Assembly: GCA_049967855.1 (NCBI GenBank)
Contig: JBMFRX010000024.1
Coordinates: forward strand, 1 to 11,518
Direction of reading: 5' to 3'
Source: Caldisericaceae bacterium
GTDB taxonomy: Bacteria; Caldisericota; Caldisericia; Caldisericales; Caldisericaceae
DNA: 11,518 bases
Below the pieces are notes generated by a model. That model saw only the letters and a program-made list of their open reading frames with translations, made no database searches and was not told where the DNA came from. Below are positions 1 through 10,950 of this stretch, in pieces. How positions within the stretch are numbered: the stretch's first letter is position 1; each line of letters opens with the position of its first letter. The position numbers and the translations under genes are program-made.

Positions 1-847
1 TCCCACTAGAGGTTGTAACTAAAATATCACCATTCCTCAACAATTTTGAACCTACATATTTTAAATTAACTTTACGAGTCGCAATATCATCAAAAAGCAT
101 TTTACCATCTTTAATGTTATTAGATCTAAGCACAGGATAACAGTTCTCAGAGCCATCAGGTTCGTCTCCCCAAATGCCTGAATCATATTGGCACACTTCG
201 CCGAGATTCTTTCTTTCCCATTTTTGGGCTTCGGGGCTTTCGAAAACTTCACGAAGGTATGCTGAAGGCAAGAATTTGGCTGCTTCAAGTTGCTTTTCGC
301 AGGAAGACCTTGCCTCATTGATATCATCCATCAGCATTTTCAGTTTTTCAGCAATCCGCTTTTGCAAAGAAAGAGGAGGAAGAGGGATAATTAATGATTT
401 AAACTCTTCAGCATTTATATTTGGCTGAGAGACTGTATGTTTTTTCTCTTCAACAAATGCGAAATACCCTGGAGAATGAGTGTAGTAAAACAAATAATAA
501 GGATCAATAAGCGTTCTTTTTGGAACAAATCTTATTAAATATGAAGCGAAAATTGACTTTGGTGGGTTACCTGTATATAAAAAAGTCCTACCTATTGAAC
601 CAGTTCTTGCAAAAAGAATGTCACCTTCCTTAAGTCCGTATCTTTTAAGTGTTTCCTCACCACAACTCACATATTTCATACTTTCCGTACTAATATTTCC
701 AAAATCGTCGATATCTGTTATTCTTATTAATGGAAAACCACTATCAGAAATAAATTCTGAAACAGTTAATCCATATTGACTGTATTCACACACTTCGCCG
801 AGCTTCACCCATTTCCACCCTGCAGGAAGGTCTTGCCTATTTTCCAT
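1..847 (-). CDS. hsdS: Type I restriction-modification specificity subunit (partial, 3' end beyond window start)
   Basis: Not in the ORF track. Manual translation from ATG 847 (RBS AAGGAG 853-858) is open to the window edge: MENRQDLPAGWKWVKLGEVC...GDILFARTGSIG...QPNINAEEFKSLIIPLPPLSLQKRIAEKL...LREVF...WERKNLGEVC...GDILVTTSSG. This shows the typical HsdS conserved regions (LPxGW, LGEV, IPLPPL..Q..I) flanking TRD1 and the start of TRD2. Confidence 0.95.
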   Translation of the reverse strand, partial: MENRQDLPAGWKWVKLGEVCEYSQYGLTVSEFISDSGFPLIRITDIDDFGNISTESMKYVSCGEETLKRYGLKEGDILFARTGSIGRTFLYTGNPPKSIFASYLIRFVPKRTLIDPYYLFYYTHSPGYFAFVEEKKHTVSQPNINAEEFKSLIIPLPPLSLQKRIAEKLKMLMDDINEARSSCEKQLEAAKFLPSAYLREVFESPEAQKWERKNLGEVCQYDSGIWGDEPDGSENCYPVLRSNNIKDGKMLFDDIATRKVNLKYVGSKLLRNGDILVTTSSG

Positions 848-903: not shown

Positions 904-997
904 CAATATGCGCCATTTTATGCGCCAAATTTTAGACTTATGCGCCATGCTAATATAAGCCACTATATGCGCCAAGAATTTCATATATGCGCCATGG
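904..997. repeat. Array of TATGCGCCA 9-mers (5 perfect, 1 degenerate) arranged as two 47-bp tandem units
   Basis: Perfect copies start at 907, 919, 939, 966 and 986; degenerate TATAAGCCA starts at 954. Start-to-start spacing is 12-20-15-12-20. Segments 904-950 and 951-997 align without gaps at 34/47 identity. Confidence 0.92.
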
Positions 998-2473
998 TTA
1001 GAGTGCTTCATATTTTGCACCTTTACCAGTGCCCACTGCTCTTGCTTGTCCACATTCAACTAATTTTGAGAGATCTCTAAGAGAAGTTCTTCTTGAGACA
1101 TTAAAAATCTGCTGATAAATCGAATTTGTCATCACTTTCCCTTCATTCACCATCATTCTCAAGGCTTCTATTTGCCTTTCATTGAGCCCAAGCTTTCTTA
1201 AATCTATTTGCCTCTCTTCTGGAATATCTGGTACTAAATCAAGGATTTTATCACCAGGACCATAAAAAGTCACTAGGAAGAAATTTCCAGGCTCGCTAAA
1301 TTCTGGTGGCTTTAAGCCATGGTTCACCATTTTGGTTTTCATCTTGCCAATACCCGTGCCGAATTTTTCCATATCCGCGGTTTCGTGGAATATTTCGCAA
1401 ATTTTCCTATTCCTTGTTTCATGAGTACCTTCAAGATTTTTAATATCCAGACGAGGAAGAAGCCCTCCAGGGCTTCTAACTTCTATTCTATTGTCAAAGA
1501 TGTCTATCTGAACATTTGCACCTGCCCTGTAGTAACTTCTGTGGGCAAGAGCGTTGATAACAGCCTCTCTTATTGCTTCAATGGGATACTCAGGAATATC
1601 AACTCTTTTGAATTCAACAATTTTACTTGCTAATCTTGTGTTTCTTTTGAAGAAAACTTCAAACTCATCAATCATTTTGTAAAATGGTCCAAAAATTTCC
1701 CTTGAGTCTATAAACTCAATTCTCGTGTTCCCTCTGAAGCGAGCCATTTTAATGCTGCTTTGAGAAATAAAATCCTGAGGATTATCAGAGAAAAATAATA
1801 TTGCTGCATTGGTTGGCTTAAGCAAACTATCTTCCTCTTTTACAACCTTCAGTGTTTTTAAAAGAAAATCTTTAACAGATATTTTGGGAATATCGACTTT
1901 TCGTTTTATCGCTCTATTTTTTAAAAAATCAATTACAAGCTCTTCGTTTATATCGTTATAGGTTGCGTCCTTGCAAATTGCTGTATCGAATGGAGAGTTT
2001 ATTACTAAGTCTTTTTCGGTAAGGAATTCTAGAAGACTGCTATTGACTTCGTCTTTCAAATCTTGAATATCTTTAAAACTCTTGAAGACAAAACCTGATT
2101 TTGGGTCTTTGATTCTATTTATAAGGTTTGTTACCTTTTCATCTCTTTCTGTGCTATCCCCGTTTTTTACATATGTTAGGATACACAGTTTTTTCTCCAC
2201 TGCTTTGGAAAATTCCCTTTCTATCGCGGAAGTACCATCAGAGCCGATATTCCCATAATCTTTACCCAGTATTAATATGAAAATGTCACTTTTAGAAACC
2301 TCTTTAAGATAAACTTTTTCAGAAGCTTCGCTTTTTGCATGCAAGTCTTCGAAAATGAAAACTTCAAAATACATACTCAGCAATTTGTCTTTTTCAATAA
2401 ACTCCTTTAATGCAGCTCTCTCTTTTTTGAATTCACTTTGAACACTGCTTATAAAAATATTGAACGGTTTCAT
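998..2473 (-). CDS. DUF4062 (TIR-like) domain + HATPase_c_4 ('RecG C-terminal' GHKL-like ATP-binding) domain + C-terminal winged HTH protein, ~491 aa
   Basis: N-terminal IFISSVQSEFKKER...SDIFILILGKDYG...SAIEREF..A fits DUF4062. The middle, EYPIEAIREAVINALAHRSY...IFDNRIEVRSPGGL...RNRKI...MEKFGTGIGKM, fits HATPase_c_4. C-terminal LNERQIEAL...VSRRTSLRDLSKLV...GTGKGAKY fits a wHTH. Start moved from TTG 2491 to ATG 2473, which has GAGGTG at 2481-2486. Confidence 0.85.
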   Translation of the reverse strand: MKPFNIFISSVQSEFKKERAALKEFIEKDKLLSMYFEVFIFEDLHAKSEASEKVYLKEVSKSDIFILILGKDYGNIGSDGTSAIEREFSKAVEKKLCILTYVKNGDSTERDEKVTNLINRIKDPKSGFVFKSFKDIQDLKDEVNSSLLEFLTEKDLVINSPFDTAICKDATYNDINEELVIDFLKNRAIKRKVDIPKISVKDFLLKTLKVVKEEDSLLKPTNAAILFFSDNPQDFISQSSIKMARFRGNTRIEFIDSREIFGPFYKMIDEFEVFFKRNTRLASKIVEFKRVDIPEYPIEAIREAVINALAHRSYYRAGANVQIDIFDNRIEVRSPGGLLPRLDIKNLEGTHETRNRKICEIFHETADMEKFGTGIGKMKTKMVNHGLKPPEFSEPGNFFLVTFYGPGDKILDLVPDIPEERQIDLRKLGLNERQIEALRMMVNEGKVMTNSIYQQIFNVSRRTSLRDLSKLVECGQARAVGTGKGAKYEAL

Positions 2474-2533: not shown

Positions 2534-4861
2534 CTATGCTGCAAACAACCTTCGTTTAACTTCATAGATGATATTCTTTGGGTCTCCAAGCATTTTTAGA
2601 GACTCAAGTCCACCTGCTCTGCTAACTTCTGGCGTATCAAAAACATTTCGGTTTTCTAATTCTTCGGTGCCACCTTTTTCAAACTGCTTTGCAAGCGCTA
2701 AAAGAGTTGCTCTTGCTTCTTTTGGAAGGGAATTAAACCATTCACTGAATTTATATTCCAGAGCTGACACTCGTTCCTTTCTGCTTTTCGGAGCAATGCC
2801 GAACGCAATTTCTGCAAGAATATCATACAAATCATAATCGTATAATCCTAATAATTCTTGAAGCATTTTTACGCCAGCGGCACCGTTTGGAAGAAATTCA
2901 AGAAGAGCTTTTCTTTTCTGCGGATCAATCCAGAAATCCTGCAGTTCGCTAAAACTCCCAACCTCCTCACGCACTTTTGAAGCAATTGCTTGTTTATATT
3001 CCTCTACGGTAACTTTTCCAAGTTTTCCGTTAACATCTGTAACAATATATGTTCCAGCAGGATTTATATGGACATCAAAACCTTCCACTCTGATTATTTT
3101 TTCTTTTCTTTCTCCACTGTCTTCTCCTTCTTTGGAAGGAGAATTTCTTGTTACGAAGTCCTCTCCTAACAGGCGGGAAGCGTTTGTATAGTCGTAAGCC
3201 CTGAACATAAGTTTGTTAGTTGGGGCATAAACTCTTGAACCTCTGCCAAGCATCTGGTGAAAAGCAATAGGTGAGTTAACATACTTGAAAAACACAACAT
3301 TCTGAAGAATTGGAACATCAACACCTGTTGTAATCAAGTCAACTGTAGTTGCAATGAAATGGCTGCGTTCAGAACCACGAAGGTCTGAAATATACTGGCT
3401 ACCGCCAACAGATGCAGTGCACTTGAATGCGTATGGTTCAACTCTCTTCTCACCATTTTCAGAGCACCAGCTTGCATACAGATTATTCATTTCATTTGCT
3501 ACTTCATCAGCATGACAATCTCTTACGCAGAATATAACAGTTTTTTGATAAGGACCGCCTGTGTTTAAGAACATTTCAAAAAGATCCTTACACATTGCCT
3601 TAACTCTATCTGGAAGCTGGATAATAGACTCAAAACTTGGTGCTTCGTATTTTTCCCTTGTCTCATCATCTGAAATAATTTCACCTGTTGTTGCATCTCT
3701 TATTGGAAGTTGCTCGAAGTCTCTTTTTGTGATGCCTGTTAAATCAAGGTTTATTTCGCGCCTTACAATTTCACAGGCTGGGAGATATCCATCCTCTATT
3801 CCCTGAGACATTGGATACTCATAAACTGGCTCTCCGAAATAACGAATATTATCTTCTGTAATTTGCTCGTCTTCTTTCCTTTCATCTGGACTGCCTCCCT
3901 TGAAGTGACGAGGGGTCGCAGTAAGACCAACTTGAATTGCTTCTGGATTATTAGTGAGAACGATGCTCCATTTTCCCCATGCACTCCGGTGGCATTCATC
4001 AATTACAATGTGGCTAAAATAATTTTTCGGATAATTTTCAAGGAAAAACTTCGCATCTTCCTCTTCTCTTGCAACATTTAAAGTCTGATAAGTTGCAATA
4101 AGTATCCTTGCGTTCTTTTGAGGATTTGAAGAAGATACCTCTGCTGCATCTGCACCAAATACATTCTGAAAAGCACCTAATGCCTGTGTTCTCAACTCAT
4201 CTCTATCGCAAAGAAATAAAGCCCTGCGCAATTGTCCTGCATCGCCTATTTTTTTGAGGAGTTGAACTGCAATAAAAGTTTTACCTGAGCCAGTTGCAAG
4301 ATAAAGAAGAGCTCTTTTTTTACCTGACGCAATATGCTCAAGGACAGCCCTTATCGCCGCGTCCTGATAGTAGCGCCTGCTTGCTTCACCTCTTGCATAT
4401 GGAACAAGCAATGGTTTGGCTGCTTCGCTTTCCAAGGAGAAACCTAACCTGTATTCGATTTTCCTCCTTAACTCTTCAACCGTAGGGAATTCAATCATTG
4501 CTTTGGGTTCTGAGGTTATACCGCTGAAAGAATCATACTCTACGAATAAGTGTCCGTTGGAAGAATACACAAAGTGAACTTGATTTAAACGCGCATACTT
4601 TTTTGCCTGTTCTAAACCCTTTGTCGGTAACTCATTTTCCTTCTTTGCCTCTATCAAGGCAACTGCCAAAGGCTGAGTGGTTGCACTAACCTTGACTCGC
4701 AAAAGATAGTCAATTCTACCAGTTTCTTTCCTTGCAGGTTTGCCGTTTAGTATTACTATTCCTTTTTCAGTTTCCTCACGAGATATCAAATCTTCAGTCC
4801 ATCCCTTTTGATGAAGGATTGGATCTATTAGTTTTGCTCTTGTATCGGCTTCGTTAAGCAA
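2534..4861 (-). CDS. hsdR: Type I restriction enzyme R subunit, EcoEI/EcoAI-like, ~775 aa
   Basis: N-terminal NEADTRAKLIDP; nuclease motifs IDYLL...IEAKK...QAKKY; SF2 motifs RYYQ, ATGSGKT, DECHRS, TATP, TTGVD and QMLGRGSR; EcoEI_R_C-like tail (YDLYDILAEIAFG). Likely start is TTG 4861 with GGAGG at 4871-4875, rather than 4933. Confidence 0.93.
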   Translation of the reverse strand: MLNEADTRAKLIDPILHQKGWTEDLISREETEKGIVILNGKPARKETGRIDYLLRVKVSATTQPLAVALIEAKKENELPTKGLEQAKKYARLNQVHFVYSSNGHLFVEYDSFSGITSEPKAMIEFPTVEELRRKIEYRLGFSLESEAAKPLLVPYARGEASRRYYQDAAIRAVLEHIASGKKRALLYLATGSGKTFIAVQLLKKIGDAGQLRRALFLCDRDELRTQALGAFQNVFGADAAEVSSSNPQKNARILIATYQTLNVAREEEDAKFFLENYPKNYFSHIVIDECHRSAWGKWSIVLTNNPEAIQVGLTATPRHFKGGSPDERKEDEQITEDNIRYFGEPVYEYPMSQGIEDGYLPACEIVRREINLDLTGITKRDFEQLPIRDATTGEIISDDETREKYEAPSFESIIQLPDRVKAMCKDLFEMFLNTGGPYQKTVIFCVRDCHADEVANEMNNLYASWCSENGEKRVEPYAFKCTASVGGSQYISDLRGSERSHFIATTVDLITTGVDVPILQNVVFFKYVNSPIAFHQMLGRGSRVYAPTNKLMFRAYDYTNASRLLGEDFVTRNSPSKEGEDSGERKEKIIRVEGFDVHINPAGTYIVTDVNGKLGKVTVEEYKQAIASKVREEVGSFSELQDFWIDPQKRKALLEFLPNGAAGVKMLQELLGLYDYDLYDILAEIAFGIAPKSRKERVSALEYKFSEWFNSLPKEARATLLALAKQFEKGGTEELENRNVFDTPEVSRAGGLESLKMLGDPKNIIYEVKRRLFAA

Positions 4862-4964
4862 GATTAGTGGCCTCCAAAAAATTATCCATATTGCCGCGCA
4901 GGATGTCCGCAGCTTTGTAAAGATAGTCTTCAAGTTGCCTGAGTGTAATCTTTTCTCCGTTCAT
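4854..4964 (-). pseudogene. hsdM: Truncated Type I methyltransferase N-terminal remnant (36 aa)
   Basis: ATG 4964 to TAA 4854 reads MNGEKITLRQLEDYLYKAADILRGNMDNFLEATNLA*. The first 27 aa match the HsdM N-terminal pattern (L..LE..L[WY].AADILRG.MD), after which similarity stops. A G-rich RBS-like GGGGGG lies at 4968-4973. Confidence 0.8.
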
Positions 4965-5116: not shown

Positions 5117-6253
5117 TTATGCAGCAAATATATCTCTTCCCTTGAATAGAAAAAGATACAGCGATATCAGGATGATTGCAATTGACAACAGAAAATCAGC
5201 TTTCACGTTAAAGATGGATACTATTAAAGCACCGAGGAGTGGTGCGTATATGCCACGAATCCCACAAGTGAAAAGATGGAGCGAAGACAAATCCTCGGTT
5301 CTGTAATCAGAATTACTAATCGAGAATGTCTGCCAGAAAAATGATATAGAGGACTCTCCTATGCCACAGAAAACGTTTGCAAGAATCATAGTCAGATAAT
5401 TAGGGAATAGTGCATATATCAATGCCATTCCAATGATGCTTGCTATACCAATTGTAAAAGTAGTATAGAGGCGGGATATGTTTTTCACATAGTGTGACCA
5501 AATTTCTATACCAAGTATGTAAGAAACGCTGTTGATTGCAAGTAGCACGCCTATCTTTGAATCTGAAAGGTTGAGAATATTCACTTCCAAAATTGGGACC
5601 GCAGGCAATATCATAAGCATGCCTGTGCCGGCTACCATGAAAATTAGAACGAGCCTCATTATATTGGAATCTTCTTTTATTATCGTAATTACGTTTGTTT
5701 TTTCTAAATCATTAGAATAAGGCTTAGGATTGGTTCTAAGAATGATAATCCCCGCAATTAACAATGCAGCTGTCGCCATTAGAAAAGTAGCCTTGTAACC
5801 CCAAAATCCCATAATAAGCCCTGAAAATGCAACGATAAGTGTGTATGAAGTGCTACGGAATTCATCAAAGCGTGCCATCACGTTTACTGCCAAACCCAGA
5901 TAAAGTAAATCAATCAGCGCTGGGTAAAGAACATCCCATGCCCCGAATAATACGAAATAAGCAATTACAAGGAATGAAAAAGGCAAAGGTGTTTTCACAA
6001 AAGAAAGAGCCGAAATTATTATTGAAGCTACGAATATTGCAATCGAAAGTGCTTTGTTAATTGTAATCTTCTCAGTTAGATAGGACCAAAAAGGGGCAAA
6101 AATATTACCAAGATAAGGGCTGCTTGATATTAGGCCAATCAATATAGGTGTTGCCCCAAGACGTGCAGCTACGACTGTAAAGAATGCTGATGCCAAACCC
6201 TGAGTTAGCCCAATATTAATTGGCACTACTGCGTCGGATTTCTTAAAAGTCAT
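5117..6253 (-). CDS. MFS transporter
   Basis: 378 aa with roughly 12 hydrophobic segments in two halves; MFS-like LGATPILIGLISS and GIYAPLLGALI. ATGA overlap with the upstream 90-aa gene. Confidence 0.85.
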   Translation of the reverse strand: MTFKKSDAVVPINIGLTQGLASAFFTVVAARLGATPILIGLISSSPYLGNIFAPFWSYLTEKITINKALSIAIFVASIIISALSFVKTPLPFSFLVIAYFVLFGAWDVLYPALIDLLYLGLAVNVMARFDEFRSTSYTLIVAFSGLIMGFWGYKATFLMATAALLIAGIIILRTNPKPYSNDLEKTNVITIIKEDSNIMRLVLIFMVAGTGMLMILPAVPILEVNILNLSDSKIGVLLAINSVSYILGIEIWSHYVKNISRLYTTFTIGIASIIGMALIYALFPNYLTMILANVFCGIGESSISFFWQTFSISNSDYRTEDLSSLHLFTCGIRGIYAPLLGALIVSIFNVKADFLLSIAIILISLYLFLFKGRDIFAA

Positions 6254-6522
6254 TTTTCAATCATAAGCACGCCAACAAACTTTCCTTCATAGGATAATTC
6301 AGTTTTGAGTCCAAAAGGGCCACTCCAGTATCGCATCACTTTGGTTTCTTCAATTGGTATTTTGGTGAGCAGGTAGCCAACTTTGCTTCCATTGTACCTC
6401 AGAATGATTTTGCTGCCCTTATCAACCAGCTCTACTTTCTTGAGGATTTGGATTACGCAAGGTTCCAGCTTTTCAGTCGTTATAGGATTTGCAAACAAAC
6501 TCTTAACGCATTCCTCATCCAT
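6250..6522 (-). CDS. Hypothetical protein (90 aa)
   Basis: Strong RBS (AAGGAGGGG) upstream, ATGA-coupled to the MFS gene, 22 bp after the oxidoreductase stop. No family recognised. Confidence 0.75.
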   Translation of the reverse strand: MDEECVKSLFANPITTEKLEPCVIQILKKVELVDKGSKIILRYNGSKVGYLLTKIPIEETKVMRYWSGPFGLKTELSYEGKFVGVLMIEK

Positions 6523-6544
6523 TTTGCCCCCTCCTTTTATTTTT

Positions 6545-8449
6545 TTATAATCTCATTCCCACTGCATAGCCGTCTCTAACTGCCTCAACAATTTTGGAGA
6601 CTTTTACAGCGTCTCCTATTCTGTAAGACGGTATAGGCATCTGTTCAAAAAATGAAGTCCTTCCTCCAAATGCTATGACAAAAATGTCAAAACTGATTTC
6701 CCTTTCAACACCATTGTTTATAAACTTCACGCTATTTTCGCTAAGGCTTTGAATCTTAGATTTTGCTAGAATCTCGACTTTGTGCTCGTTAAGTTCAGTC
6801 AACAGATGTTTTCGGCTTAGTGTTTCCATTCCAATTGCTACATCATCGAGCATCTCAATTATTGTAACTGCATTGCCGTTTTCAGCAAGGTATAAAGCAG
6901 TTTCACATCCGATAAGCCCTCCGCCTCCAACAACTATTTTCTTTGATTTTGAAGTTTCTTTTGTAAGGGCGTCTTTATAAAGAATAACATTTGGTCCGTC
7001 AATTCCAGGTATCCGCAAAATTAATGGTTCTGAACCAATTGCCAGAATAACTTCGTCTGGATTCTCCTGCAAAACCGTTTCTTTGTCAGCCTTTATTCCA
7101 AGCCTTACGTCGACTCTTAACCTTGCCAATTCGTTTTTGTAATAATCAACAAGCCAATTTATTTTTTCTTTTCCAGGTGGAATTGAGGCGAGATTTAAAG
7201 CACCGCCTATTTTATCTTCCTTCTCGAGCAATACTACGTTGTGGCCTCTTAAAGTCAAAACTCTCGATGCCTCCAGCCCCGCAGGCCCTGCTCCGACAAC
7301 AACTACTTTCTTCTTATTTAAGGCAGGAATAAGATTTGCATAAGACTCGCTCTTGCCAACATTTGGATTGACACCGCATCTGATTGCTGTACCGAGAACA
7401 TGTCTCGACATAATACACTCTGAACAGCCGATGCATTTTCTGATTGATTCAACTTTTCCGTACATCGCTTTTATAGGCCAATCAGGGTCAGCAATTAGAG
7501 TCCTACCAAGAGCAACTATGTCTGAAACACCATTCACAAGTAGCTGTTCAGCAAAGTCAGGCTCTCTAATGACGCCAACTGCTGCAACAGGGATTTTTAA
7601 GCCTTCGTCCTTCAGAACTTTGGCAAATCCTGAACGCCAGCCTTCAGCATAGGACATAGGTTCAAGGCGCTTTTCTTTGTCTCCCAATCCAACGTCGGCA
7701 TGCACATATGCATAACCGTATTCCTCAAATTTCTTAGCTATTAAGGTTCCCTCTCCTTCGGGAGTAATACCTCCTGTAATAAATTCCATCACACCAAGGC
7801 GTGCGGAAACGGTAAAATCCCTCCCGCACAATTCTTTTATCCTGTCTATTAGGAGTTTTGCAAAGCGTGTTCTATTATCAAGTGAGCCACCAAAATCATC
7901 TGTCCTTGTATTTGTAAGAGGTGATAAAAATTGTTCAACAAGAAGTCCATGAGCGGCTTCTATTTCAACGCCATCAAAACCTGATTTTTTTGCAATTAAA
8001 GCTGCATTAGCGAATTTCATTGCAATAGCATCAATTTCTTCAGTGTTTAATACGTGCGGTTTGACTCGATCGCTTCGCAGGGGTACATCGGATGGTGCAA
8101 AGACAGGAAAATTGGTTCCGTAGAGTCCTTGATGAGTGAGTTCTATGAATGCGAATGCTCCATATTTGTGGATTTCTTCTGTAAGTCTGCTTAGACCTGG
8201 TATGTATTCCTCTTTATCAAGCCTTGGTTGTGTTGCGCCTTCCATAGTTGTGGGATAATCGATGCAAGCATTTTCAACTGTGACTATGGCAGCGCCTCCT
8301 TTTGCACGCATAGCATAGTGATAAATAAAATCGTCTGTAGCTTCACCTGTTACTGACGCAAGATTAGTAGAAACGGGTGCAAATATAATCCTATTCCTTA
8401 GGACTAAGTTGCCTACCCTGATTGGAGAAAAAAGTTTTTCAAATTCCAT
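6545..8449 (-). CDS. NADH:flavin oxidoreductase, Old Yellow Enzyme family with 4Fe-4S and FAD/NAD(P) domains (FadH/BaiH/NADH-oxidase-like architecture)
   Basis: LFSPIRVG..LRNRI; GFDGVEI..AHG; QFLSPLTNTRTDDFGGSLDNR; GRTLIADPDW; Fe-S motif CIGCSEC-x11-C (CGVNP); Rossmann motifs VGAGPAG and GGGLIGCE; GDA near the C-terminus. RBS GAGAGG at 8457-8462. Confidence 0.93.
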   Translation of the reverse strand: MEFEKLFSPIRVGNLVLRNRIIFAPVSTNLASVTGEATDDFIYHYAMRAKGGAAIVTVENACIDYPTTMEGATQPRLDKEEYIPGLSRLTEEIHKYGAFAFIELTHQGLYGTNFPVFAPSDVPLRSDRVKPHVLNTEEIDAIAMKFANAALIAKKSGFDGVEIEAAHGLLVEQFLSPLTNTRTDDFGGSLDNRTRFAKLLIDRIKELCGRDFTVSARLGVMEFITGGITPEGEGTLIAKKFEEYGYAYVHADVGLGDKEKRLEPMSYAEGWRSGFAKVLKDEGLKIPVAAVGVIREPDFAEQLLVNGVSDIVALGRTLIADPDWPIKAMYGKVESIRKCIGCSECIMSRHVLGTAIRCGVNPNVGKSESYANLIPALNKKKVVVVGAGPAGLEASRVLTLRGHNVVLLEKEDKIGGALNLASIPPGKEKINWLVDYYKNELARLRVDVRLGIKADKETVLQENPDEVILAIGSEPLILRIPGIDGPNVILYKDALTKETSKSKKIVVGGGGLIGCETALYLAENGNAVTIIEMLDDVAIGMETLSRKHLLTELNEHKVEILAKSKIQSLSENSVKFINNGVEREISFDIFVIAFGGRTSFFEQMPIPSYRIGDAVKVSKIVEAVRDGYAVGMRL

Positions 8450-8489
8450 TTTTTAGCCTCTCTTTCATTTATAACTTATCCAGTTGCTT

Positions 8490-8498
8490 ATTATAGCA
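8490..8498 (-). promoter_or_regulatory. Extended -10 promoter (TGcTATAAT) for the oxidoreductase operon
   Basis: Perfect TGnTATAAT on the minus strand, 40 bp upstream of ATG 8449. No good -35 element. Confidence 0.55.
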
Positions 8499-8614
8499 CT
8501 AATTGGCCAAAAATAAATTCATTTTGCAATTTCCCGTTGCAAGGCTGTGTCTCTGTTGCAAATAATCTGAAATAGAATAGCGACCGCCGAAGGAAACTGT
8601 TTCCGACCAACAAC

Positions 8615-8642
8615 TTGACAGATTAAGAAAGAAGTTTAAAAT
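8615..8642 (+). promoter_or_regulatory. sigma70 promoter directly abutting the MFS start codon
   Basis: TTGACA (8615-8620) - 16 bp - TAAAAT (8637-8642) - 6 nt - GTG 8649. Confidence 0.65.
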
Positions 8643-8648
8643 TCCATT

Positions 8649-9809
8649 GTGGATAAAAATAAAAAGTACATTACACTAATGGTTATATTTAGATTGTTCA
8701 GAAGCCTTTCTGCTGGAATGATTGCAATTGCTTTCCCTTACAGGATTCTTGTTGACCTCAAGTACAGTACTTCCACTCTCGGATTGATTTACACGACTGC
8801 AACTATTGCTACCGCGATTTTTGGTTTATTATTTGGTTTCTTAGCCGATATCTACAGCAAGAAGATTACCCTACTGATGGCTGCGGTGCTCTTACCGTTG
8901 AGTGCCATCTTAATATTTTCATCAAATAACTTGTTTCTGCTTTTTGTTGCAGCAATGCTTGGAGGAATATCCGCAACAGGGTCAACATCGGGAGGAGGAG
9001 TAGGTGGAGCAGCTGCGCCAATACAGAACGCCATTATTACAGATTTAACAACGCCTCAAGAGAGAACGTTTTATTTTTCTTTGCTAATGTTCCTTGGTAG
9101 CATTATCGCTGCGTTAGGTTCATTGGCAGCAAGATTCCTTTCGAACAAAGACATATTCTTGTTGGCGGCTTTATTATCACTATGTTCTGCTTTAGCAGTA
9201 GCTCCAATAAAGCTCGCAAGACCGGTGAACCACGAAAATAAATTCGCTCTTAAAAGCGCTCTCACAATAGGTAAATTCACCTTAACTGGGATGCTTAATG
9301 GCCTGAGTCAGGGTCTGGTAACACCATTCCTGATTCCCTTTTTTGTTATCACATTTAAAATAACAGAATCTGTAATGGCTAATTATGCTTTCATTAGCGG
9401 AATCATCGCTTCATTTGCGCTCTTAGCTGCGCCATACCTAAAAAGGCGTTTTGGTTTCCTTAGAAGCATTATTATGACAAGAGGACTTGGGACGACACTA
9501 GCTGTAATTATGCCGATATTCAGGATATTGCCAGTTTCTCTGTTCATATATTTTTCAATGCCAGCATTAAGAGTAATGGCTCTGCCTGTGCAACAGTCTG
9601 CTATGACTGATATGGTCGATTCTGAAGAGGTTGGCAGGGCATTGGGCGTAAATCAAGTTACACGTCTTGCTTCGTCTTCTTTAGGGACTCTGTTCTCTGG
9701 TTATATGTTTGACATTTCGGAGATAGGTTTGCCGTTTTATACATACGGGGCAGTTATGGGAATTAACATTTTTCTCTATTACAAATTTTTTAAGGACTCA
9801 AAAGAATAG
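8649..9809 (+). CDS. MFS transporter
   Basis: 386 aa, about 12 TM segments, motif A-like GFLADIYSKK, Gly-rich GGGVGGAAAP, second-half LKRRFG and EEVGRALG. Confidence 0.9.
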   Translation: MDKNKKYITLMVIFRLFRSLSAGMIAIAFPYRILVDLKYSTSTLGLIYTTATIATAIFGLLFGFLADIYSKKITLLMAAVLLPLSAILIFSSNNLFLLFVAAMLGGISATGSTSGGGVGGAAAPIQNAIITDLTTPQERTFYFSLLMFLGSIIAALGSLAARFLSNKDIFLLAALLSLCSALAVAPIKLARPVNHENKFALKSALTIGKFTLTGMLNGLSQGLVTPFLIPFFVITFKITESVMANYAFISGIIASFALLAAPYLKRRFGFLRSIIMTRGLGTTLAVIMPIFRILPVSLFIYFSMPALRVMALPVQQSAMTDMVDSEEVGRALGVNQVTRLASSSLGTLFSGYMFDISEIGLPFYTYGAVMGINIFLYYKFFKDSKE

Positions 9810-9825
9810 TCAAATAAAATAATCT

Positions 9826-9852
9826 TTGAAAATGGCTCTGAAGTGTTAAAAT
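9826..9852 (+). promoter_or_regulatory. Extended -10 promoter abutting the glycosyltransferase start codon
   Basis: TG-T-TAAAAT (9844-9852) - 6 nt - ATG 9859. TTGAAA at 9826-9831 has a short 15-bp spacer. Confidence 0.55.
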
Positions 9853-9858
9853 ATTGTT

Positions 9859-10950
9859 ATGGAAGCTATAAAAATTTATTTTGGTATTTTTGGCTATCTG
9901 TTTTTGTTTTTGATTACCTTTATGATCCTTTTAGGCAAGTCTTCTAAGAAATTGCCTGTCAAGAAGAAATACTCTTTTGACAAATTCATAGCAGTTATCC
10001 CTGCTCACAACGAAGAAAGAGTAATATCAAATTCTATATTATCCTGTGAGAGGGCAGGTTTCGACAAGGTGATTGTGATACTTGACAGCTGTACAGATGG
10101 TACTCCTACTATTGCAAGCAAGCTTGGATGCGATACTATTGTTACTGACTTAAAGTCAAAAGGCAAATCTTTGACTTATGCAATTCCGTTAATTACCAAG
10201 CAATACGGTGAAAATTCTTTTTATATGATTTTTGATGCCGACAATGTTGTTGATGAAGACTATGTGAGAAAAGTAAAGGAGTATGTAGAGACTTATCCCT
10301 TAATCCAAACAAATCTATACAATCTGAATACCAGCGGCATTATCCCAAGGATGTACATTATTATGGATGCGATTTATCTTCGTATCCAGAAGGCGCTGAC
10401 TCTCTTAGGGATTTCCTCGATTATTTCAGGATACGGATGGGGTGCATACGGCTGGGTGTTCAGTAGATACAAATTTGAATGCAGTTCTGTCCTTGAGGAT
10501 TTTGAGTATACTGTTAAAATACCATTGAAGGTTGTATTTATAAGCGATGCAACTGTGAGAGATGAAAAACCTACTGAGTTCTTGCCTTCTTTCAGACAAA
10601 GACTGCGCTGGTACAGAGGATATTTCTACACGGTTTTCAAGGAGAAAGGTGCTGCAAAGAATGTTTTTACTGTCCCACTTATTTTGGTTTCTGCCTTAGG
10701 CATTTTGAGTTTTCTTATATCTCTTCCAGAACCACTTTATCTGTCTATCCCGCTGGTTGTATTTGCTATTCACACGTTTATTTTTCTGCTCTCTCTTAAT
10801 AAAATGGAATTGAAAGACGTTAAGCGTTTTGATATTTTTCTGATGTTTTTCTTCAATATGACAAATCTATACGCAATTCTACTTGCTATGTTTACTTCAA
10901 ACAAAACTGACTGGACAAAAACGTCTCACGTTTATAAAGCGAATATCTAA
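9859..10950 (+). CDS. Membrane-bound glycosyltransferase family 2 (CesA-like superfamily)
   Basis: N-terminal TM segment, IPAHNEE, DSCTDGT, KGKSL, DxD (FDADN), LED, QRLRW (QxxRW), and C-terminal TM helices ending W.KT.H. Confidence 0.92.
   Translation: MEAIKIYFGIFGYLFLFLITFMILLGKSSKKLPVKKKYSFDKFIAVIPAHNEERVISNSILSCERAGFDKVIVILDSCTDGTPTIASKLGCDTIVTDLKSKGKSLTYAIPLITKQYGENSFYMIFDADNVVDEDYVRKVKEYVETYPLIQTNLYNLNTSGIIPRMYIIMDAIYLRIQKALTLLGISSIISGYGWGAYGWVFSRYKFECSSVLEDFEYTVKIPLKVVFISDATVRDEKPTEFLPSFRQRLRWYRGYFYTVFKEKGAAKNVFTVPLILVSALGILSFLISLPEPLYLSIPLVVFAIHTFIFLLSLNKMELKDVKRFDIFLMFFFNMTNLYAILLAMFTSNKTDWTKTSHVYKANI

Follow-up and report, generated by a model that had tools for sequence, protein, structure and literature searches.

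In the passages of three recent preprints, DUF4062 (NIR) domains are described as defense NADases and the tested DUF4062 systems work in abortive phage defense (10.64898/2026.05.01.722283; 10.64898/2026.09.04.749371; 10.64898/2026.06.25.731849); in one of them, Eva01, defense was abolished by E87A, according to the passages of the corresponding report (10.64898/2026.06.25.731849). The protein analyzed here shares with Swarozyc, PsAvs2, Vulcan, Vesta, and Eva01 the N-terminal effector family, the catalytic Glu, and the occurrence as a single gene in defense loci. Whereas the Swarozyc, Evangelion, Vulcan, Vesta, and Avs systems have a portal-binding AUX, a short AUX, HEAT repeats, a phosphatase partner, and STAND-TPR, the present protein has none of these, and its auxiliary part is a PF13749 GHKL ATPase plus wHTH with a predicted cognate DNA array. 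The GHKL-wHTH chassis and the ExxxN ATP site are shared with ‘Schlatpase’ (SLFN_AlbA_2 and PF13749, with or without HTH; DIP2311, 3lmm), and the chassis and location in RM-type operons are shared with RzAgo (10.64898/2026.05.29.728809), pSlfn HisKinase-HTH (PMC13056530), and BREX Schlafen-HK-wHTH (PMC12839542), as far as the passages of these sources describe them. In contrast to Schlatpase and RzAgo, a predicted NADase replaces the Schlafen RNase, and there is no Argonaute. The RzAgo passages count ~60,000 Schlafen-GHKL proteins, whose modules are stand-alone within RM operons or fused to HsdS (10.64898/2026.05.29.728809). The present analysis revealed the same kind of array at Schlafen chassis genes; the passages on Schlatpase/RzAgo and those of PMC13056530 and PMC12839542 make no mention of cognate repeats or of a wHTH specificity code.

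A toxic effector gene placed as a backup within a Type I hsd locus is likewise known from PrrC/EcoPrrI and Ronin, and ronA was reported as always linked to hsdMS (10.1101/2023.04.06.535777). The present protein differs from both in that it is unrelated to them, shows neither obligate hsd linkage nor co-divergence, and has a DNA array of its own. A site for a DNA-binding protein at the 3′ end of its own gene is likewise found in the self-roadblock of LacI with tmRNA tagging, in the passages of two reports (PMC13584721, PMC3985003). The system considered here differs from LacI in the phased direct-repeat array, the apparently swappable specificity, and the fused, predicted toxic enzyme. In retrons and Hailong, DNA keeps a toxic effector off until phage disturbs it, and this DNA is synthesized and single-stranded; the present system would instead use a chromosomal double-stranded site in cis.

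The window, that is, the whole stretch of 11,518 nucleotides analyzed, is an entire contig (C24; G000:C24:1-11518), and the features of the locus are collected in Table 1. Open reading frames and Pfam searches agreed with the original prediction of a 491-aa DUF4062-GHKL-wHTH gene between hsdR and hsdS: the hsdR stop ends at 2534, hence a 60-bp gap separates hsdR from the gene, and 150 bp separate the gene from hsdS. The motif SAIEREFSKA begins at residue 82, so that the numbering of its Glu as E87 was also correct; VINAL begins at residue 305. Pfam placed DUF4062 at residues 6–91 (E 2.9e-19) and HATPase_c_4 at 318–403 (E 2.6e-23), with weak TrmB and DeoR wHTH matches under the cut-off at 425–490. 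The wHTH was backed by the AlphaFold2 model of the protein (mean pLDDT 86) and by VIA, which returned winged helices over 430–491 with Z about 10.

Table 1 Features of the locus in the window
Feature	Position	Strand	Remarks
NIR(DUF4062)-GHKL(PF13749)-wHTH gene	998..2473	-	ATG at 2473; 491 aa; Pfam, predicted model, VIA
hsdR, EcoAI-like lineage	2534..4861	-	probable start TTG at 4861 behind GGAGG
hsdS, 5′ part	1..847	-	cut by contig end; Methylase_S E 4e-26
NIR/DUF4062 TIR-like NADase domain (predicted)	2009..2473	-	~residues 1–155; F7, S82, catalytic-position E87
Linker and GHKL ATPase module	1232..1996	-	residues 160–414; E303, N307, H311, G372-x-G374
C-terminal wHTH	1001..1192	-	residues 428–491; recognition helix S460-RRTSLRD, wing G481-KGAKY
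Array of six phased direct repeats	907..994	-	consensus TGGCGCATA; predicted sites for the wHTH of the adjacent protein

The flanking HsdR matched NF046051 with E 1e-140 and 470 bits, below the cut-off of 550. The window contains no hsdM; an EcoAI-type hsdM sits on contig C23, behind a DUF234 gene that runs off the edge of that contig, and from this arrangement the operon order is probably hsdR, the 491-aa gene, hsdS, the DUF234 gene, and hsdM, with the C24/C23 join inferred. This probable cognate hsdM (G000:C23:10674-13448; L001) thus would be preceded by another passenger, the DUF234 gene, in the hsdS–hsdM slot. Immediately upstream of hsdR, a 36-codon ORF (4854–4964, minus strand) presumably resembles, by motif, the start of HsdM from another Type I family; it had no Pfam match, and tblastn gave a weak match to L054 (E 0.002) and none to L136. 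It is possibly the scar of a replaced RM cassette. The remainder of the window (5117–10950) contains two MFS transporters, an NADH:flavin oxidoreductase, a family 2 glycosyltransferase, and a 90-aa ORF without Pfam match.

The N-terminal domain scored 69.5 bits against PF13271 (DUF4062), with a cut-off of 24.7. Fold comparison of residues 1–155 by VIA gave Z 12.9–13.1 to the TIR domains of SARM1 and TIRAP, and NDT folds tied with the TIR folds (Z 13–14). In a sequence alignment with Eva01, F11 and E87 of that protein corresponded to F7 and E87 of ours, so that E87 aligns with the essential Glu of Eva01; Eva01 was taken as the pMW2 protein, which agrees with the paper at six of the seven residues numbered there (position 177 being K instead of L). 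The profile of the DUF4062-GHKL family, over its positions 3–150 only, matched the KpSwz structure 10wc with E 2e-13, and E87 was kept in all 89 distant representatives having a full N-domain. Together with the 2026 preprints, these comparisons favor the catalytic Glu and the TIR-like NADase identity that had been proposed, and as judged from sequence the NIR domain is very likely an active NADase.

Residues 160–414 superposed on DIP2311 (3lmm) with VIA Z 22.1 and an rmsd of 2.9 over 233 residues, and the spacing of the ExxxN residues E303/N307 equals that of E314/N318 in RzAgo. According to the RzAgo passages, PF13749 binds and hydrolyzes ATP via E314 and N318 and drives tetramerization (10.64898/2026.05.29.728809); by analogy, ATP likely drives assembly of the present protein. 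The place of the N-terminal SLFN_AlbA_2 nuclease is taken by DUF4062 (Pfam), and the Schlafen version occupies the same pre-hsdS slot in loci L133 and L039, in accordance with the earlier proposal that the effector was swapped on a Schlafen-type GHKL-wHTH chassis. DUF4062-GHKL-wHTH is an apparently undescribed architecture of NIR NADases, although each of its domains is known and effector swapping is expected. A search of running text did not find the fusion in print, and it may be labeled in the NIR tree or in the domain figures of the three preprints; GHKL, HATPase, and RecG were absent from the main texts on Swarozyc, NIR/Vulcan/Vesta, and Evangelion and from one supplement.

The DUF4062-GHKL fusion was common in environmental genomes, with 797 matches among 8000 scored candidates, and both Pfam families were present in 119 of 120 among the matches listed. 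E87, E303, N307, and H311 were invariant in 118 close homologues. Clustering at 50% yielded 150 representatives, 89 of which had the full N-domain; 78 of these were 400–700 aa long, and all 78 kept E303, N307, and H311. A search of genome contigs with the single protein gave one locus, and therefore the neighborhood set derives mostly from the best 80 of 551 metagenome matches. The spread was patchy, with four close homologues in 93 genomes of the phylum. Integrases adjoin several copies, and one copy is carried by a plasmid, next to rep and par genes. Viral contigs gave no member of the close clade; the distant profile detected in them one full-length DUF4062 type among 32 loci. Two distant DUF4062-GHKL proteins, L132 and L137, have a wHTH of the Fic-like_C kind, and their linker regions contain perfect 12-bp repeats in frame; a Legionella plasmid carries one of them beside rep/par genes, and the other comes from a viral contig, close to hsdM and hsdS-like genes. 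Temperate phages often keep defense genes next to the integrase. Beside its integrase, Gordonia phage Nymphadora carries gp38 (L171), annotated as ‘DNA helicase’ but of the Schlafen-GHKL-HTH type. The loci L038 (4568–9464) and L039 (7950–16369) contain two or three chassis genes apiece, whose arrays differ from one another; the two copies of L038 are separated by an ADP-ribosylglycohydrolase gene.

Inspection of the DNA behind the gene revealed an array of a 9-mer, overlooked in the original prediction, starting 3 bp past the stop codon, with repeats at 986–994, 966–974, 954–962, 939–947, 919–927, and 907–915 and spacings of 20-12-15-20-12; five copies are exact and the one at 954–962 has two mismatches. 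Only three exact copies of the 9-mer occur elsewhere in the 1.3-Mb assembly. A structured RNA or terminator was rejected as an explanation, as no fold was better than those of shuffles (z +1.2). We collected 141 non-redundant chassis genes, among which 81 had a wHTH of the same subtype and 78 of these had enough flanking DNA. A phased triple repeat (p ≤ 0.05, 40 shuffles each) was present in 74 of the 78 loci, including 25 of 26 DUF4062 types as well as Schlafen types, and the other four failed the test; 72 of the 78 scored higher than the 99th percentile set by 300 ordinary gene ends. Spacings clustered at 20+12 (32 loci), 11+11 (20), and 20+11 (13), near whole helical turns. In 24 of 25 DUF4062 loci the first site fell between −13 and +6 bp relative to the stop; over 73 loci in total, it fell between −15 and +10 bp in 54, deeper inside the gene in 14, and further out in five. 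Among the 61 chassis genes with other tails, nine had 12-bp triples that keep the reading frame within the linker preceding the wHTH, seven of them perfect over the 12 bases, and no such triple was seen in the remaining 52. The array persisted at non-hsd loci with a convergent next ORF (L042, L046, and L067, by mechanical ORF calls); it belongs with the chassis gene and not with whichever gene lies downstream.

Distribution of the arrays outside this arrangement was limited. The pattern of the window array occurred in 3 of 93 genomes of its own phylum and in none of 167 genomes of another phylum. An orphan array of the same type (L175; G069:C132:358-395) precedes what look like decayed hsd genes, and no wHTH gene was detected in the 357 bp upstream of it. 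In L039 (9474–9980), L041, and L116, different repeat types stand in succession behind one gene, like a record of earlier wHTH–array swaps; the array carried by L116 is of the TTACACGAT type, which is non-cognate to the window protein. Phage decoy arrays received no support, the search with two patterns giving one match per pattern, one in low-complexity DNA and one an orphan triple. Arrays were also seen in loci that look archaeal from their neighboring genes, and tmRNA is not expected in archaea. Cognate arrays for the GHKL-wHTH chassis were not found in print within a search of the running text of mostly open-access papers, and a cis DNA array as partner of chassis genes is apparently undescribed.

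Comparison of the arrays with the recognition helices revealed a consistent pairing. In the close clade, SRRTxxRD was paired with TGGC(G/A)C, TNKTAATD with TTACAC, SNQTxVRD with TGTCA, and TDKTARMD with TTACCG. On the wHTH tree the site class changed five times, the minimum (0 of 200 shuffles as low; 22 rows), whereas on the NIR+GHKL tree it changed 11 times (18 of 200 shuffles as low; 22 rows), and L044 and L045 combine near-identical cores with different wHTH–array pairs. This suggested that the wHTH and the array swap as one specificity unit. Since physical linkage of the wHTH and the adjacent DNA could explain co-variation within the close clade, a cross-clade test was made on 66 loci, to which 73 were reduced by merging at 80% wHTH identity. 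Similarity between sites correlated with recognition-helix identity when the scaffold was controlled (partial r 0.225, p 0.002), and no significant correlation with the scaffold was found when the helix was controlled (r 0.058, p 0.118); the cross-clade correlation is modest (r about 0.2). The top columns were the helix and wing residues S460, R461, R466, K487, M441, and K484. Leave-one-out prediction from the nearest helix, with scaffolds less than 60% identical, scored 9.81 against 7.91 ± 0.18 and beat 200 of 200 permutations. Helix and site stayed paired whether the effector was Schlafen or DUF4062, and the pairing also held where the array is in frame and precedes the wHTH (SRRT with TGGCAC in L104; EKTIKRD with TGTCCC in L138). 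The protein-blind site register is imperfect for arrays of 11-bp period, and thus no residue-by-base code is given beyond these examples. As far as sequence comparison can tell, it is very likely indeed that the array following the stop codon is bound by the wHTH encoded just before it.

The original prediction of a DNA-gated design is supported, the likeliest gating DNA being this cognate array. We tentatively propose, with confidence approaching an even balance, that the gene is a one-gene abortive defense module with a cis DNA partner, in which binding of the array limits expression and silences the NADase, and release depletes NAD+. The wHTH would very probably dock on the phased repeats just 3′ of its own stop, where the position of the array and the LacI/tmRNA precedent suggest that the bound protein would stop RNA polymerase before it clears the gene; expression would then be self-limiting, with a few molecules staying docked on the DNA and the amount of protein kept close to that of the sites. 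In the passages of one report, tagging is placed roughly eight codons upstream of the protein on the DNA, and LacI is cited as doing so on its own gene (PMC13584721); those of another describe a CcpA roadblock (PMC3985003). A tmRNA is present in the genome of the window. By homology, the GHKL domain would assemble the protein upon ATP binding, as in RzAgo, and the NIR domain would act as an NADase via E87. Docking may keep the NADase off until a phage breaks down the host DNA or a DNA mimic drives the wHTH off, upon which the free protein would assemble, deplete NAD+, and abort the infection. Several observations count against this scheme. The RzAgo effector is switched on by target-DNA binding, according to the passages of that preprint (10.64898/2026.05.29.728809), so that the gating could have the opposite sign. 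Further points against it are the Schlafen-HisKinase fusions that gave no protection in E. coli (PMC13056530), the four of 78 loci failing the array test, the 52 of 61 genes with other tails and no in-frame triple, the arrays in archaeal-looking loci, the orphan array in G069, and the triple in a phage contig.

A somewhat unlikely alternative is that the array is bound but sets only the expression level by self-roadblock, and that the NADase is triggered by something else, for instance a phage protein or a change in ATP perceived through the GHKL or wHTH domain. Under this explanation the array is fully accounted for by its place at the stop codon together with the roadblock precedents of LacI and CcpA, and the HTH/winged domain of Swarozyc binds a phage portal protein in the passages describing it (10.64898/2026.05.01.722283). 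However, it explains less well the fast swaps of specificity, as in L044/L045 and in the older array types downstream in L039, L041, and L116, although some of the swapping could serve to prevent cross-talk where copies share a locus (L038, L039). Autorepression at the gene's own promoter was rejected, because cognate sites showed no excess within 300 bp upstream of the genes (4 observed vs. 4.5 expected, 60 loci), a range beyond which operon promoters may lie.

Analysis of the neighborhoods bore on a second alternative, in which the Type I Hsd complex holds the protein as a PrrC- or Ronin-like guard and anti-restriction proteins free it via Hsd inhibition. Among 25 de-duplicated DUF4062-GHKL loci, nine were inside a Type I operon and one abutted hsdR, whereas a local search detected a Type I neighbor in 0 of 47 loci whose chassis protein lacks DUF4062 (Pfam check of the controls: 141 of 153 listed neighbors within 3 kb, 42 loci covered). 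The expected hsd enrichment was thus found, 10 of 25 vs. 0 of 47, at a Fisher p of 6e-6, a value that kinship, redundancy among the control rows, and the shortness of contigs make too extreme. hsdS directly followed the gene in seven of the nine in-operon loci, one of them a weak call. These counts and the reported HsdS-fused Schlafen-GHKL proteins fit a guard. Against it, 15 of the 25 loci had no hsd gene nearby, in a set with many short contigs; the host hsd operons belong to three unlike lineages (EcoAI-like, a second hsdR lineage of 30% identity, and hsdM-first operons); the tree intermingles members with and without hsd neighbors; and divergence did not detectably track that of HsdR (rho 0.10, p 0.66; 21 non-independent pairs with low power). 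A search that took hsdR as its starting point found the hsdR lineage of the window in 6 of 93 genomes of the phylum: three with the gene, one with a Schlafen-GHKL-wHTH gene in the same slot, one with nothing, and one with a fragment. Three loci of this lineage have no such gene; of the plasmid copies examined, 2 of 2 lack it. Equivalent slots elsewhere hold RadC, Schlafen-GHKL, OLD, CAP12-TIR, AAA, or PDDEXK genes, or nothing. No fusion to Hsd subunits was found among 29 long or distant representatives, and a search of longer proteins gave one match, a Schlafen type, which is weak evidence. The absence of hsd at 15 loci, the three lineages, and the lack of co-divergence mean that a PrrC-type guard bound to the Hsd enzyme, as originally suggested, is not the best reading, and we consider it quite unlikely. 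Within the proposed defense module, the hsd operon would be a favored home, as a second line behind restriction, and not an obligatory partner, and the array could there also throttle transcription of hsdS and hsdM. For BREX loci, passages of one report predict Schlafen-HK-wHTH genes as backup effectors (PMC12839542).

Other passengers were observed in these operons. A RadC-like JAB gene with an N-terminal extension lies directly after hsdR in L004, L035, L039, L115, L116, and L133 (called by Pfam in five loci and by likeness in L133), but not in the window. Candidate NAD-targeting or STAND genes within hsd operons include a 1427-aa AAA/STAND gene (L115:2438-6718), a CAP12-type TIR gene (L116:8445-9251), a second DUF4062 gene just under the cut-off (L004:5700-6242), and a SIR2-like gene (L136:2643-4433).

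It is improbable that the locus is a selfish addiction module in which the DNA array is the antitoxin and cells losing the locus are killed, which would stabilize the RM cassette or mobile element with defense being incidental: the patchy spread, the nearby integrases, the plasmid copy by rep/par, and the rapid specificity swaps are in line with it, but the DUF4062 systems tested act in abortive phage defense in the passages of the 2026 preprints. An ATP- or nucleotide-sensing transcription regulator of hsdS/hsdM, with the array as operator and DUF4062 as a sensor or non-toxic hydrolase, close to the purely transcriptional role once offered as the alternative, is a poor fit and very improbable, for although the array lies 60–147 bp upstream of hsdS and NDT-type hydrolases tie with TIR domains in the fold search, the array travels with the chassis gene, is kept at non-hsd loci and inside coding sequence, lacks an excess of cognate sites upstream, and accompanies an invariant NADase Glu.

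Returning to the proposed module with its cis DNA partner, we suggest, still more tentatively, that the whole effector-GHKL-wHTH superfamily uses a double-stranded DNA array at its own gene end as an antitoxin: each gene would restrict its own expression, keep its toxic product parked on itself, and fire when this DNA is destroyed, lost, or out-competed. Of the four architectures tested in one study, Schlafen-HisKinase among them, the DUF262 and Ig-like fusions alone gave protection in E. coli, according to its passages (PMC13056530); if the downstream DNA was not cloned along, the absent array is a possible reason for the failure of Schlafen-HisKinase. The chassis family is among the commonest uncharacterized genes of defense islands, often mis-annotated as ‘RecG helicase’ or ‘HTH regulator’, and the array provides a concrete candidate ligand for it; the dozens of natural helix–site pairs are, in addition, a ready set for studies of wHTH–DNA recognition. 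If the superfamily reading is true, these genes would constitute a genome-integrity tripwire with a readable and swappable protein–DNA code and interchangeable NADase or RNase warheads, and plain chromosomal sequence would serve as the antitoxin, which would be categorically new only in that case.
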